A model generated the notes under the pieces. The model was not told the DNA's origin. It made no database searches and worked only from the letters and a program-made list of their open reading frames with translations. A program made the translations under genes and the position numbers. Shown in pieces: positions 53,829 through 60,628 of a stretch of DNA of 64,000 bases. The DNA comes from Parcubacteria group bacterium (GTDB lineage: Bacteria; Patescibacteriota; Minisyncoccia; UBA10092), in the NCBI GenBank assembly GCA_016186325.1, contig JACPLW010000010.1, positions 22,856 through 86,855 of the forward strand. The letters run 5' to 3'. The stretch's first letter is position 1; the number at the start of each line of letters is the position of its first letter.

Positions 53829-55303
53829 ATTTAAAAGAACTTACCATAAAACAAACGCATGAACTTCTGCAAAATCAAGAAGCAAGTTCGGTTGAATTGA
53901 CGAAAGAATTTCTTAAAAATATTAAGGAAAAAGATGGCGATATTCATGCCTTTTTATCATTAACAGAAGAAACAGCTTTAGAAACAGCTAAGAAGGTTGA
54001 CGATAGAATTTCAAAAGGAGAACCGATTGAAATGCTCGCCGGAATTCCGGCGGCGATAAAAGATAATATTTGCATTCGAGGCGGAAAAACTACCGCCGCT
54101 TCGAAAATTCTTGAAAATTATATCGCGCCTTATGATGCGACCGTTATTAAAAAACTGAAAGAAGAAGAGGCGGTATTTATTGGTAAAACAAACTTAGATG
54201 AATTTGCCATGGGTTCTTCAACCGAAAATTCCGGATTCGGACCGACAAAAAACCCGGTTGATACAGACAGAGTTCCCGGAGGTTCTTCCGGCGGTTCGGT
54301 GGCGGCGGTTAAGGCCGGCTTTTCTGTTTACGCCTTGGGTTCTGATACCGGCGGCTCCATTCGCCAGCCGGCCAGTTTTTGCGGCGTCGTCGGTTTCAAG
54401 CCGACTTACGGCGCCGTTTCTCGGCACGGTCTTATCGCTTTGGCCTCCTCGCTTGACCAGATTGGCCCGATTACTAAAAATGTTGAAGATGCCGCGATTG
54501 TTTTTGAAACGATACGCGGCGGCGATGAACTTGATTCAACCAGTTCGCCTAATGATTGGCAGGATTTTAATAATTCAATTCCGGATATTGAAGAACTGAA
54601 AATCGGGGTGCCGCGCGAATATTTTACTCACGGTTTAGATAAAGAAATCGAGAAAAATATCAGGGGTGTTATTTCTAAATTAGAAAAAGAAGGCGCTAAA
54701 ATAGAAGAAATATCTTTGCCTTACAGCGATTTCGCGTTGGCAGCCTATTATATTATTATGCCGGCCGAAGCTTCGGCGAATCTAGCGAGATACGACGGAA
54801 TGAAATACGGACTTTCCACTATCCAAATACCAAATACTAAATACCAGATACAAAATTTGTCCGATGTTTATCTAGATACAAGAGGAAAAGGTTTTGGTGC
54901 CGAAGTAAGAAGAAGAATCATGCTTGGAACATATATTTTATCTCATGGTTATTACGACGCTTATTACAAAAGAGCTCAAAAAGTGAGGCGGCTTATTAAA
55001 AACGAATTTGACCATGTTTTTAATCCGTCGGCCGACGGAGTTGATGTTATTTTAACGCCAACCTCGCCGACAACGGCTTTTAAATTCGGGGAAAAAACTC
55101 AAGACCCATTATCTATGTATTTGGCGGATATTTATACCGTTTCGGTTAATTTGGCGGGCGTTCCGGCAATTTCGTTGCCTTCGGGCGAAGTAAACGGCCT
55201 TCCTGTAGGATTACAGCTTATCGGCAAAAATTTTGAAGATGTAAAATTGCTTAGAATCGCAAAACTTATTGAAACAATTATTAACGAAAAATCTCATGTC
55301 TGA
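53825..55303 (+). CDS. gatA: Glu-tRNA(Gln) amidotransferase subunit A
   Basis: Amidase signature GGSSGGS. 492 aa. Confidence 0.9.
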   Translation: MNLKELTIKQTHELLQNQEASSVELTKEFLKNIKEKDGDIHAFLSLTEETALETAKKVDDRISKGEPIEMLAGIPAAIKDNICIRGGKTTAASKILENYIAPYDATVIKKLKEEEAVFIGKTNLDEFAMGSSTENSGFGPTKNPVDTDRVPGGSSGGSVAAVKAGFSVYALGSDTGGSIRQPASFCGVVGFKPTYGAVSRHGLIALASSLDQIGPITKNVEDAAIVFETIRGGDELDSTSSPNDWQDFNNSIPDIEELKIGVPREYFTHGLDKEIEKNIRGVISKLEKEGAKIEEISLPYSDFALAAYYIIMPAEASANLARYDGMKYGLSTIQIPNTKYQIQNLSDVYLDTRGKGFGAEVRRRIMLGTYILSHGYYDAYYKRAQKVRRLIKNEFDHVFNPSADGVDVILTPTSPTTAFKFGEKTQDPLSMYLADIYTVSVNLAGVPAISLPSGEVNGLPVGLQLIGKNFEDVKLLRIAKLIETIINEKSHV

Positions 55304-55829
55304 TCAAGTTTTATATATAATAAACTATTTAAGCTCATATATTGTTTGGATTAGCGGTACTTCAGCTGTTTCTAATTTAAAATGGCTTGGTGGAGCGCTG
55401 TCTTTAATTTTCATCGGTCTCATAGCGCTTCTGATTATGAAGCTTCAGATTATAGACGGTTTATTTAAAACCGCGGGTAATTTTTTATTAACCAACGCTT
55501 TTCCTAAAAGGCATCTTAATAAATCCTGGCAAAAAATTCTGGCGCGGCTTAATAAAAACGACGAGGCTAATTTACGGCTGGCCTTAATTGAAGCCGATAA
55601 CATATTTGACGATTTGTTAAAACAAATGCGGCTTCCCGGCGAATCAATGGCCGACAGGTTAAAGTACATTGATTCTTCACAGGTTTCTAACATTGACGAA
55701 ATTTGGCGCGCTCATAAGCTAAGAAACGTCATTGTTCACAATGCCGAATATCCAGTTACCAGAAATGAAATGGAATTCGGAGTCGGCGCTTATCAGAGAG
55801 CATTAAAAGAATTAGAGTTTATTGATTAG
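55296..55829 (+). CDS. Hypothetical membrane protein (occupies the usual gatB position; not GatB)
   Basis: Two TM helices then a soluble domain. Its last 72 nt are duplicated at 56573-56644. Confidence 0.4.
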   Translation: MSDQVLYIINYLSSYIVWISGTSAVSNLKWLGGALSLIFIGLIALLIMKLQIIDGLFKTAGNFLLTNAFPKRHLNKSWQKILARLNKNDEANLRLALIEADNIFDDLLKQMRLPGESMADRLKYIDSSQVSNIDEIWRAHKLRNVIVHNAEYPVTRNEMEFGVGAYQRALKELEFID

Positions 55830-56082
55830 AAAACACTTCTTACAATCTACGCACTTTATGCCGATCGGAAATAACTGCGTAGATTTTTTATGACTTTTTT
55901 GAATTTTTTAAGTTTAATTAGCGGGGAGCAGTGGACAACGTTAGAATCTGTTTTTAGACTATTACTGTTAAGTTGTTTATACCAAAACTATCACTTAACA
56001 CCTTTCTTATAAAATGAAAAAGCGGGCGAGATTATCGCACCGCTTGTTATGTGTTCTTTTTTCTTATAAATCAAGAAGCCAT

Positions 56083-56391
56083 TTACCAGTATTTTGGGGA
56101 ATACTTTACTTCATCTGGAATCGGGTTTACAAATACCCGTTCAACTGCCCGATAGAAAAACCACAGAGGCCACAAAGGAACTGCCCAACGCCTAATTTGT
56201 ATAAATATTAATGTTCTGTTCAGAAAGTCGCGATGCGCTTTAATTGTCTCAACATTTTTAGCAAATGCCAGCTCATCATCGCATCGGTTTATTTCTCGTT
56301 GCGTCATCCAACGCGAATGCAGTCTTCTAACCGTCCTGGTAGCTTGAGATGCATTAAACACACAATCAAGCCAAGGATCGTACATACCCAT
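56083..56391 (-). CDS. Hypothetical protein (102 aa)
   Basis: Good SD (ggaggtcgac-ATG). Lies inside the segment bounded by the 72-bp direct repeats. Confidence 0.4.
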   Translation of the reverse strand: MGMYDPWLDCVFNASQATRTVRRLHSRWMTQREINRCDDELAFAKNVETIKAHRDFLNRTLIFIQIRRWAVPLWPLWFFYRAVERVFVNPIPDEVKYSPKYW

Positions 56392-56507
56392 GTCGACCTC
56401 CGTTTGAATTTTTAATGTACATTATCAGATTGAGCCCCAGCCATCTGCTATAATGGCAGGCGCCAATTGGATAAGTATATACCATATAATAAAAATCCTG
56501 TCAAATC

Positions 56508-56575
56508 TGCGGGCCGGACGGGATTTGAACCCGCGATCTCTGTCGTGACAGGGCAGCGCTTTGAACCGCATAACC
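56508..56575 (-). other. Truncated tRNA 3' fragment (T-arm plus acceptor 3' strand only), related to but distinct from tRNA-Asp
   Basis: GAGATCGCGGGTTCAAATCCCGTCCGGCCCGCA against tRNA-Asp GAGATCGCCGGTTCGAATCCGGTCGCCCGCGCA. The stem positions differ by compensatory changes. No 5' half is present. Confidence 0.5.
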
Positions 56576-56644
56576 AGAAATGAAATGGAATTCGGAGTCG
56601 GCGCTTATCAGAGAGCGTTAAAAGAACTGGAGTTTATTGATTGA
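56573..56644 (+). repeat. 72-bp direct repeat of the 3' end of the 55296-55829 gene (about 94% identical)
   Basis: accagaaatgaaatggaattcggagtcggcgcttatcagagagcgttaaaagaactggagtttattgattga, against the same segment at 55758-55829. Confidence 0.7.
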
Positions 56645-56713
56645 CATATTTATTTAGTGTTTGTTATTATACTTTTCACTACAATTTTTATTATGCCCTG
56701 AGGGAGTCGGGAA

Positions 56714-56929
56714 ATGGCAGCAGGCGAGATATTTGAAAATCTAAAAGAATTCTCATCTAAAGAAAATAAAGTAGTTTTTAAAAATCCATTCTTTCTGTTC
56801 AGAGGCGAATCAAAAGATGAAGCACCGGAAGAAGTTCTTATTACAACACATGCTATCGAAGGAAATTACGGCGAGGTTGTAAGTGCTAATGACGTGGCTA
56901 CTTTTATAGCCGATCTATTGAATAGATAG
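56714..56929 (+). CDS. Hypothetical small protein (71 aa)
   Basis: ORF only. It sits between the tRNA fragment and the intact tRNA-Asp. Confidence 0.3.
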   Translation: MAAGEIFENLKEFSSKENKVVFKNPFFLFRGESKDEAPEEVLITTHAIEGNYGEVVSANDVATFIADLLNR

Positions 56930-57014
56930 AGCTTGGAAAAATAAAAAAAATTAAGCGCATCCAATAAATAACTATATTTATTGGATTTTTTATTGATTGT
57001 GAGAATCTTTTGTG

Positions 57015-57089
57015 CGCGGGCGACCGGATTCGAACCGGCGATCTCCTCCTTGACAAGGAGGCGCTTTAAGCCAACTAAGCTACGCCCGC
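57015..57089 (-). tRNA. tRNA-Asp (anticodon GTC)
   Basis: Minus-strand GCGGGCGTAGCTTAGTTGGCTTAAAGCGCCTCCTTGTCAAGGAGGAGATCGCCGGTTCGAATCCGGTCGCCCGCG. Confidence 0.8.
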
Positions 57090-57092
57090 AAA

Positions 57093-57164
57093 TGCCGATG
57101 GCAGGAATCGAACCTGCGACGTTCGCTTTATGAGGGCGACGTTCTACCACTGAACTACATCGGC
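57093..57164 (-). tRNA. tRNA with anticodon CAT (elongator Met or Ile2)
   Basis: Minus-strand GCCGATGTAGTTCAGTGGTAGAACGTCGCCCTCATAAAGCGAACGTCGCAGGTTCGATTCCTGCCATCGGCA. Confidence 0.7.
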
Positions 57165-57207
57165 TTTTAATTTGACCATTCTACCAGAATTAACGTATAA
57201 TTTCAAC

Positions 57208-57279
57208 GCGGGGTAGAGCAGTCTGGTAGCTCGCGAGGCTCATAACCTTGAGGTCGTTGGTTCAAATCCAACCCCCGCA
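57208..57279 (+). tRNA. tRNA with anticodon CAT (elongator Met or Ile2), with its own TATAAT box
   Basis: GCGGGGTAGAGCAGTCTGGTAGCTCGCGAGGCTCATAACCTTGAGGTCGTTGGTTCAAATCCAACCCCCGCA. TATAAT at 57196-57201. Confidence 0.75.
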
Positions 57280-57527
57280 ACACTTCGACTCGCTTCGCTC
57301 GCTCAGTGCAGGCAAGTTGCTTTTTTCGTAAAAATTTGATAAAATAAGCGCATGCTTTTAGGCACAAGACACGCTTATTTAATAGCCCTTATTTTTTCAA
57401 GCGTTCTGGCCTGGTCTTCTTTTTTTGGCATTGTTTTTTTTACCAATCCCGCCGATGCCGGTGTTCTCGGAGTTTTGACCTTGTATGTTAGTCTTGGCAT
57501 CGGATTGGGCAGTTTCGGACTCATTAT

Positions 57528-58697: not shown

Positions 58698-60628
<1,931 letters not shown>

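Follow-up and report, generated by a model that had tools for sequence, protein, structure and literature searches.

[quoted passage not shown] (2002), and Meier and Wackernagel (2003) as primary sources. According to the same account, illegitimate joints in model organisms usually have 3-10 bp of microhomology (PMC6382021). The locus described here resembles these cases: DNA homologous on one side would enter by one homologous exchange and one illegitimate joint, and foreign sequence is gained beside a conserved anchor. It differs from them in its joint, where microhomology is limited to about 1 nt, and in that 72 nt are duplicated instead of deleted, because the illegitimate joint falls within the anchor region. 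The process is known from other phyla, and DNA uptake by the present host is putative.

Genomic islands and prophages that target tRNA genes are defined in Islander by an intact tRNA with a same-orientation 3' fragment downstream, a tyrosine integrase, and a length of at least 2 kb with foreign genes, and tRNA-targeting integrases cross over at the anticodon loop or at the T-loop/acceptor (PMC4383910). Our locus shares with them a same-orientation 3' fragment downstream of an intact tRNA, empty sites in relatives, and cargo beside the tRNA 3' end.

Free-standing homing endonuclease genes drive the inheritance of neighboring DNA; phage T4 SegB, in a tRNA gene region, is an example. Two haplotypes of one region can also come to stand in tandem as false heterotype duplications, and the locus has this appearance.

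Organization of the locus

The window, by which we mean the whole 64,000-nt stretch of DNA analyzed, comes from an uncultured groundwater Parcubacteria bacterium that is Azambacteria-like. The locus (Table 1) is flanked by ligA, gatC, and gatA on one side and by pheS and gyrB on the other. Its order is A-X1-B'|A'-X2-B, where A is the 177-aa gene, X the cargo cassettes, and B tRNA-Asp. The left unit consists of A (ending in repeat copy 1), a terminator, the ORF102 cassette, and a second tRNA-Asp (B', or tRNA-Asp') that is cut at position ~13. The right unit consists of A' (the gene's final 72 nt alone), the ORF71 cassette, and the intact tRNA-Asp. There is one new joint, at 56572/56573, which connects position ~13 of tRNA-Asp' to position -72 of the gene; microhomology is about 1 nt (T/A), or 4 nt (ACCA) if one mismatch is allowed.

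Much of this anatomy had been noticed in a sequence-only reading of the same DNA. The intact tRNA-Asp, placed there about 440 bp from the fragment in the same orientation, lies 437 nt away with both on the minus strand, and the interval contains copy 2 and ORF71. The terminator and small ORF reported between the repeats correspond to the first hairpin in Table 1 and to ORF102. No GC or skew anomaly was detected over 55830-57013. The tandem arrangement as a whole is known from one metagenome-assembled genome: in a homology search, three window proteins were the NCBI proteins HYW79_03360, 03365, and 03370, each represented by a single contig, and exact-sequence look-ups of the three gave no match.

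Table 1. Features of the tRNA-Asp locus, with positions in the window.
Feature	Position	Strand	Evidence or remark
Complete 177-aa conserved gene	55296..55829	+	166 homologs in Azambacteria/Parcubacteria; 100% match to NCBI HYW79_03360
Repeat copy 1: working final 23 codons and stop TAG of the 177-aa gene	55758..55829	+	
Terminator of the 177-aa gene: hairpin 55844-55885 with 10-bp stem, then T run	55844..55892	+	-14.9 kcal/mol, z = -4.8, 0/200 shuffles as stable; inverted repeat
ORF102 terminator: hairpin 56020-56045, then U run	56010..56045	-	-14.5 kcal/mol, z = -4.2
ORF102, cargo of the left-hand unit, small all-helical protein (predicted)	56083..56391	-	GGAGG ribosome-binding site 5 nt upstream; three homologs
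Promoter-like site for ORF102: TTGACA, 17 nt, TATATA with TGn	56476..56504	-	Direct sequence reading
tRNA-Asp(GUC) pseudogene, positions ~13-76	56510..56572	-	Rfam tRNA 29.1 bits; alignment to 30 tRNA-Asp types
Repeat copy 2: orphan final 23 codons and stop TGA	56573..56644	+	Without start codon or upstream reading frame
Promoter-like site for ORF71: TTGACA, 18 nt, TATTAT, with TG	56641..56670	+	Consensus scan, 11/12 matches
ORF71, cargo of the right-hand unit, small protein	56714..56929	+	86% homolog P0126
ORF71 terminator: 12-bp hairpin, then T run	56959..56992	+	Folding analysis
Intact resident tRNA-Asp(GUC)	57014..57089	-	ARAGORN; Rfam 70.7 bits; type same as closest relative L011
Two tRNA-Met(CAU): 57093-57164 (-), 57207-57281 (+)	57093..57281		Conserved right border of slot

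The 177-aa gene and the 72-nt repeat

The 177-aa protein has an N-terminal membrane segment and a C-terminal Rx4H motif, and the start ATG of its gene overlaps the gatA stop. A domain search with the protein returned a weak HEPN match and nothing else, and a PDB profile search with the family returned no significant match.

The two copies of the gene's last 72 nt are identical at 67 positions (93%, stop codons included), close to the 94% originally estimated. A 35-nt core of the repeat occurs exactly twice in the window and was absent from 100 shuffles. The five differences between the copies are all silent, three being synonymous and the others turning TAG into TGA. The chance that three changes are all synonymous is P ~0.007-0.02, and 1 in 27 double changes of TAG yields another stop. 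Because all of the differences are silent, the copies diverged while each was still a functional gene end in its own genome, and not after duplication in place.

A duplication in place could also have produced the same order. Unequal illegitimate exchange of sister chromosomes would have duplicated the segment from gene position -72 to tRNA-Asp position ~13, and a different allele would later have replaced one unit through homologous recombination. The A-X-B'|A'-X-B topology with a single new joint fits this exactly. The copies are also closer to each other than to the gene ends of 37 relatives, none of which exceeds 65/72, and the lineage-specific CAGAGA is present in both. However, the units share the 72 nt alone, since X1 bears no relation to X2, and B' and B are only 70% identical. 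Silent-only differences are not expected of a drifting dead relic, and two events are needed where one suffices. We regard tandem duplication as improbable.

BLAST found no second gene-end copies in relatives; among the loci seen, this genome alone has the 72-nt duplication. Copy 2 is the gene end that stands before the ORF71 cassette in its native arrangement, and its last bases (the stop codon) overlap the -35 box of the ORF71 promoter-like site. Block-wise identity against nine relatives gave no clear switch inside the 177-aa gene, and because no mosaic break is visible there, donor and recipient sides are indistinguishable.

The tRNA-Asp fragment

The fragment had been described as a T arm and 3' acceptor strand only, but it is larger. 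It retains part of the D arm, the anticodon arm, the T arm, the 3' acceptor strand, and the discriminator, and it is missing the 5' acceptor strand and half of the D stem. The Rfam tRNA model matches 56518-56576 (model positions 8-63), including the D loop and the anticodon arm with GUC; alignment to relatives sets the true tRNA homology at the limits given in Table 1. Identity to the resident tRNA-Asp is 44/63 (70%), with a longest identical run of 8 nt, and identity to the tRNA-Asp at the same locus in L059 is 96% over 55 nt; L036, L053, and L056 also match. Compensatory differences are present in the T stem and acceptor strand, and the suggestion that the fragment came from a distinct functional tRNA agrees well with these matches to real tRNA-Asp genes of relatives. 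By this comparison with other Azambacteria, the fragment is an orthologous tRNA-Asp of another lineage.

Could the fragment be part of a complete non-canonical or split tRNA that still works? Its Rfam score reaches the gathering score (29.1 against 29 bits). Against this, ARAGORN called no tRNA at the fragment, the bases upstream are the gene-end copy instead of a 5' acceptor strand, and no cloverleaf was found, with folding no better than that of shuffles (z = +0.49). In addition, one anticodon-stem pair conserved across all 30 related tRNA-Asp types is disrupted by a G-to-A substitution. A working tRNA is hardly credible.

The slot in related genomes

Orthologous loci are useful for deciding which arrangement is native. 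In L011, which has 91% amino acid identity, a single nucleotide separates the TGA stop from the tRNA-Asp 3' end, and the site is thus empty. The gap is 2-10 nt in twelve further loci, so that 13 of the 45 informative loci are empty (L011, L024-L027, L029, L039-L042, L052, L059, and L062); elsewhere it ranges from 30 nt to over 2.5 kb. The comparison with relatives lacking the segment, which had been proposed as a check, thus revealed empty sites. Cargo in the relatives includes a GIY-YIG nuclease, an AI-2E transporter, a GNAT acetyltransferase, HepT/MntA, a SocA-like antitoxin, and uncharacterized proteins. From these alignments, the interval between the stop of the 177-aa gene and the 3' end of tRNA-Asp is a hypervariable cassette slot.

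Both cassettes of the window can be placed against this background. The ORF71 cassette (56649-57011) is 87% identical at the nucleotide level to L033, L034, and L035, where it starts 4 nt after the TGA of the intact gene and lies natively between the gene stop and tRNA-Asp. This identity exceeds that of the flanking gene (~60-92% per 60-nt block). The ORF102 cassette with its flanks (55830-56509) adjoins the conserved gene end and is absent from the other 71 loci fetched via the 177-aa gene.

Fragments of tRNA-Asp are also present in related loci. Perfect 17-18-nt copies of the tRNA-Asp 3' end flank cargo in L009 and L047, and 23-47-nt tRNA-Asp 5' fragments are found in L005, L063, and L033-L035.

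As separate observations in relatives, small GIY-YIG genes lie next to this tRNA-Asp together with displaced pieces of it, and the neighboring tRNA-Met is split by a group I intron that carries a PD-(D/E)XK enzyme.

Origin of the tandem arrangement

The origin first proposed for this locus was an element that integrated site-specifically at the 3' end of a tRNA gene and then decayed. An island would have integrated into tRNA-Asp, displaced the native 3' part, and lost its integrase and most of its genes, leaving 437 nt. A 3' end piece downstream of the intact tRNA in the same orientation fits the Islander rules, relatives have empty sites, and the perfect copies in L009 and L047 resemble att cores. 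However, no integrase is encoded in the interval or the flanking genes, and none of 20 slot cargo proteins of relatives has an integrase or resolvase domain. Across the window, a Pfam scan of 45 of the 71 ORFs, all lying outside ~34.3-43 kb, showed housekeeping families only among the 25 listed of the 70 families matched. A viral origin found no support either, since three scans of viral contigs gave no match to the 3' end of the fragment's tRNA, ORF102, or ORF71. The interval falls short of the 2 kb minimum, the fragment begins in the D arm instead of at the integrase crossover places, and the 8-nt run that it has in common with the resident tRNA leaves no shared core. The supposed element also opens with 72 nt of a neighboring chromosomal gene, and the remainder is a cassette native to the locus. 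Because the interval opens with the neighboring gene's end, the inserted DNA is another allele of the same locus and not a foreign element. Empty sites in relatives uphold the view of the locus as an integration or recombination scar, but without integrase or core, site-specific integration with element decay is a poor candidate for its origin.

Fusion of two alleles of the slot is the reading that we favor. Because empty sites exist, the ORF71 allele is native in L033-L035, and the fragment is akin to tRNA-Asp of other Azambacteria, the window reads as two slot alleles in tandem; the silent-only repeat differences and the comparison with about 70 orthologous loci indicate that two alleles of one locus were fused. 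We assign a probability of about 0.55 to an ordinary recombination scar in which two alleles of one cassette slot were fused head to tail by one illegitimate joint and one homologous exchange with DNA of a close relative. The scars in L009, L047, L005, L063, and L033-L035 favor this reading, as comparable scars recur at the locus. The variability of the slot, and the greater similarity of the two repeat copies to each other than to any relative, also speak for it. Against it, no relative was found with the left-hand allele alone, and a donor allele (gene, ORF102, and intact tRNA-Asp') sought among 74 loci was not found; the short microhomology at the joint, compared with the usual 3-10 bp, also counts against it.

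The data show the anatomy, the empty sites, the allelic origin of both units, and the lack of an integrase at the locus, whereas the enzymology, the donor side, and the means of DNA entry are inferred. The most likely origin is a single event. DNA from a close relative carrying the other slot allele would have been taken up, fixed on one side by homologous recombination, and sealed on the other by a nearly homology-free illegitimate joint. Such a process may be called homology-facilitated illegitimate recombination or, equivalently, one-ended break repair followed by end joining, and Campbell-type insertion of a circularized 815-bp allelic fragment would give the same product. The event would have left the protein of the 177-aa gene unchanged, added one self-contained small gene, and killed one tRNA-Asp copy with the other intact. 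Copy 2 would remain as a relic whose final bases serve as the -35 box of ORF71.

Assembly can also create such a structure when two co-occurring strain alleles are placed in tandem in a scaffold. The structure is exactly two alleles in tandem, and differences that are all silent are just as compatible with two live alleles. Breaks within tRNA-Asp are common among contigs of these assemblies (L001 and L051 end there), and the junction is present in one contig alone. Unlike a false heterotype duplication, however, the joint has no gap (zero N bases), and its overlap of 1-4 nt offers no shared k-mer for a de Bruijn graph to pass through. The run of 44 identical bases that precedes the first difference also does not equal k-1 for the default k values of IDBA-UD, MEGAHIT, or metaSPAdes. 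An artifact is unlikely, although somewhat less so than tandem duplication.

In itself the scar is minor: it adds one case to the recombination scars that include a dead tRNA copy. It provides a worked example that a tRNA fragment and a direct repeat beside a tRNA gene do not alone indicate an integrase.

A possible cassette-exchange site

Nearly every lineage has different small cargo in this one intergenic slot, with GIY-YIG genes, a group I intron, and several tRNA-Asp fragments nearby. This pattern could show gene exchange in Candidate Phyla Radiation bacteria without classical mobile elements. One speculative reading, to which we give little weight, is that the slot is a dedicated integrase-free cassette-exchange site, where breaks made by homing endonucleases are repaired from the alleles of other strains and small self-contained cassettes are moved between lineages of Azambacteria. 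The products of the GIY-YIG genes next to tRNA-Asp would be candidate endonucleases, as would the PD-(D/E)XK enzyme encoded in the intron of the neighboring tRNA-Met, and the tRNA-Asp fragments and gene-end copies may be by-products of repair. Relatives resemble homing endonuclease loci in having these genes and the intron near tRNA-Asp, and break repair from another allele would give such mosaics. In contrast, the window has no GIY-YIG gene or intron, and a link to its scar is conjectural. If this reading is true, intron-less homing would serve to shuffle genes in bacteria whose genomes are very small.

The cargo genes

Pfam and PHROGs searches with ORF102 and ORF71 gave no significant match and no recombinase, and a Foldseek search of the ORF102 AlphaFold model against PDB gave nothing below E = 0.9. 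The ribosome-binding site and the three homologs (56-67% identity, 34 invariant columns) indicate that ORF102 is a real small gene. The homologs (L017-L019) are in unrelated contexts with no tRNA-Asp nearby. The AlphaFold model (pLDDT 69.5) has three helices. The promoter-like site of ORF102 begins 6 nt past the 3' end of the tRNA fragment; it was missed by the consensus scan because the final base of its -10 hexamer is A.

A variable slot between the 177-aa gene and tRNA-Asp

The source genome is a Candidatus Azambacteria-like Parcubacteria metagenome-assembled genome, and each of the region's three proteins has a 100% match in NCBI (HYW79_03360, 03365, and 03370). The comparison set comprised 74 fetched loci (L numbers), in which the conserved order is ligA, gatC, gatA, the 177-aa gene, tRNA-Asp (-), tRNA-Met (-), tRNA-Met, a small membrane protein, pheS, and gyrB. 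In the closest relative (L011, 91% amino acid identity), a single base separates the stop codon TGA from the tRNA-Asp 3' end. Gaps of 2-10 nt between gene stop and tRNA-Asp were found in 13 of 45 informative loci, L011 among them; thus, relatives do have the empty site that the sequence-only reading called for. At the remaining loci, this slot spans 30 nt to over 2.5 kb and holds unrelated small cargo: GIY-YIG nuclease, AI-2E transporter, GNAT acetyltransferase, HepT/MntA, SocA-like antitoxin, VTT and PGPGW membrane proteins, and several proteins without a family match.

The 177-aa protein is a conserved neighbour of gatCAB in Azambacteria. A homology search found 166 homologues, with an almost invariant C-terminus (...ALKELEFID). 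Its N-terminal part contains a membrane segment and its C-terminal part an invariant R-x4-H motif (RNVIVH); given a weak HEPN match (PF18730, E = 0.024), it could be an HEPN-like protein anchored in the membrane.

Features of the locus (window coordinates unless a relative's locus is named)
Feature	Position	Remarks
177-aa protein gene	55296-55829	start overlaps gatA stop
Repeat copy 1 (A)	55758-55829	last 72 nt of 177-aa gene, stop included
Terminator of 177-aa gene	55844-55892	z = -4.8
ORF102 terminator	56010-45	z = -4.2
ORF102 (X1)	56083-56391	(-); self-contained gene between copy 1 and partial tRNA-Asp
ORF102 ribosome-binding site		GGAGG
ORF102 promoter-like site	56476-56504	starts 6 nt beyond 3' end of partial tRNA-Asp
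Partial tRNA-Asp (B')	56510-56572	(-)
Repeat copy 2 (A')	56573-56644	recurrence of the last 72 nt of 177-aa gene
Promoter-like site	56641-56670	between copy 2 and tRNA-Asp; -35 box overlaps copy 2 TGA
ORF71 (X2)	56714-56929	between copy 2 and tRNA-Asp
Terminator		between copy 2 and tRNA-Asp, downstream of ORF71
Resident tRNA-Asp (B)	57014-57089	(-)
GIY-YIG genes	L034 1915-2266; L033 3455-3819; L035 3183-3541; L005 3788-4122; L063 4237-4571; L002 3291-3488	
Group I intron	L002 4136-4441; L009 3510-3709; L010 6284-6512	equivalent to window 57241 in tRNA-Met 57207-57281
Conserved non-coding element, ~140 nt	L009 2663-2780; L005 3535-3652; L063 3984-4101	

Two slot alleles in tandem

The window has the layout A-X1-B'/A'-X2-B, where A is the gene end, B is tRNA-Asp, X1 and X2 are the ORF102 and ORF71 cassettes, and the slash marks a joint. 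The 72-nt direct repeat in the sequence-only reading was confirmed: copies 1 and 2 are identical at 67/72 positions, and a 35-nt core occurs exactly twice in the window (0/100 shuffles). No second copy of the gene end was found in the other fetched loci. Neither copy exceeds 65/72 identity with any of 37 relatives, and the codons CAG AGA, specific to the lineage, are present in both; this mutual identity and the common codons imply that the two alleles derive from very close relatives. All five differences are silent (GCA/GCG; TTA/CTG and TAG/TGA, two changes each). The three synonymous changes have a P of about 0.007-0.02, and another stop results from just one of the 27 double changes of TAG. 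Such silent-only divergence indicates that both copies diverged as working gene ends, each in its own genome. The same silent-only differences speak against an in-place duplication in which copy 2 then decayed.

Directly left of copy 2, an Rfam tRNA model match on the minus strand (56518-56576, 29.1 bits, model positions 8-63) includes the anticodon GUC. Alignment with 30 tRNA-Asp types from relatives showed that genuine homology begins at the 3' end (56510) and stops near position 13 (56572), past which the bases are those of the gene-end copy. This makes the fragment far longer than the T arm and acceptor 3' strand initially recognized. It is 96% identical over 55 nt to tRNA-Asp of L059 and 91-95% identical to those of L036, L053, and L056, whereas it matches the resident tRNA-Asp at 44/63 positions with no common run longer than 8 nt. 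A working tRNA is ruled out: ARAGORN called no tRNA for the fragment, the 5' acceptor strand is absent, the fold is no better than shuffles (z = +0.49; the resident tRNA-Asp is a cloverleaf), and a G-to-A change breaks an anticodon-stem pair kept in every aligned relative.

The ORF71 cassette (56649-57011) is present in L033, L034, and L035 at 87% nucleotide identity, with the TGA of the intact gene immediately on one side and tRNA-Asp on the other. This identity exceeds that of the flanking gene, which means that the cassette has passed from lineage to lineage. ORF102 has three homologues (56-67% identity) in unrelated contexts, and with its flanks it is absent from the slot in every other genome compared. 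The two units are alleles of one slot: the right one has the L033-L035 arrangement, and the left one terminates in a type of tRNA-Asp found at this place in other Azambacteria.

Origin of the joint

Only one joint in the layout is new; with microhomology of about 1 nt, it links position ~13 of the partial tRNA-Asp and position -72 of the gene. It is known from one metagenome-assembled contig only, and strain alleles placed in tandem are the expected look of a false heterotype duplication made by assembly. Such an artefact is unlikely, as the joint contains no N bases, no k-mer is common across it, and 44 identical bases precede the first difference. A stretch of this length is not known to correspond to a default k value of the common assemblers.

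A single event would be enough: DNA of a close relative with the other allele would be incorporated through a homologous exchange at one end and an illegitimate joint at the other. In one route, the recipient would have carried gene, ORF71, and tRNA-Asp, and a donor segment with part of the gene, the terminator, ORF102, and the second tRNA-Asp down to position 13 would have been anchored in the gene, with the illegitimate joint at -72. Alternatively, the recipient would have carried gene, ORF102, and the now partial tRNA-Asp, and a break in the latter would have been repaired from the donor allele, with synthesis beginning on the tRNA-Met side, crossing tRNA-Asp and ORF71, and extending 72 nt into the gene before end-joining. 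Both routes are candidates, as comparison with relatives gave no mosaic break of identity inside the 177-aa gene that would favour one of them. Campbell insertion of a circularised 815-bp fragment would yield the same product. Homology-facilitated illegitimate recombination has the same pattern, but its reported microhomology of 3-10 bp is longer than that in the window (PMC6382021). The feature is a recombination scar, and relatives have the matching empty sites.

The sequence-only reading also proposed a scar, but attributed it to site-specific integration at a tRNA 3' end and decay of the element, and this part was not supported. In orientation and position, the fragment conforms to the Islander rules. 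However, integrase is absent from the interval and the flanking genes, the interval measures only 437 nt, a crossover would have to lie in the D arm, fragment and resident tRNA-Asp have no common core, and the supposed element would start with 72 nt of a neighbouring chromosomal gene. No integrase or resolvase domain was present among 20 scanned slot cargo proteins of relatives, and viral contigs scanned for the fragment 3' end, ORF102, and ORF71 gave no match. Integrase-mediated insertion is thus very unlikely, and it keeps some probability because cargo in L009 and L047 is flanked by exact copies of 17-18 nt from the tRNA-Asp 3' end that resemble att cores. These direct copies surround a 187-nt non-coding insert in L009 (2645-2662 and 2832-2849) and a two-gene cargo of ~1 kb in L047 (4670-4686 and 5678-5694), both without integrase.

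Other rearrangements at the locus

In L005, L063, L033, and L035 (16-23 nt) and L034 (47 nt), a 5' tRNA-Asp fragment adjoins tRNA-Met and is separated from the intact tRNA-Asp by an 84-aa GIY-YIG gene. These displaced fragments are remains of an older tRNA-Asp. GIY-YIG genes of 84-85 aa (PF01541, E about 1e-16) lie right next to tRNA-Asp, and the junction carries a conserved motif, CAGCCGTAGGCTGA. A conserved non-coding element, 93% identical between loci and with an internal inverted repeat, follows a partial tRNA-Asp 3' copy; it has no Rfam match at the gathering threshold.

In three loci, the plus-strand tRNA-Met(CAU) is split behind its anticodon by a group I intron (Rfam RF00028, about 65 bits); the window tRNA-Met has none. 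In L012 (6572-7295), tRNA-Met is split at the same place by an insert in which Rfam called no intron. The insert carries a PD-(D/E)XK (PF11645) ORF, comparable to I-Ssp6803I, a homing endonuclease encoded in the tRNA-fMet intron of cyanobacteria. Beyond the 177-aa gene, several of the closest relatives (L012, L016, L020, and L021; 87-90% amino acid identity) have the tRNA-Asp/tRNA-Met/tRNA-Met cluster in the orientation opposite to that of the window, another rearrangement of this spot. Together, the tRNA-Asp fragments, introns, and inverted clusters mark the locus as a rearrangement hotspot, and endonuclease-made breaks are a plausible candidate trigger.

Further downstream, gyrB (58698-60628) is split into ORFs of 99 and 543 aa that overlap at 58995-58999 (...AAACTGTAATGACG...), just past a run of seven A. 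GyrB is a single ORF of 644-660 aa in L011 and L012, and the split is either an assembly frameshift error or a real frameshift.
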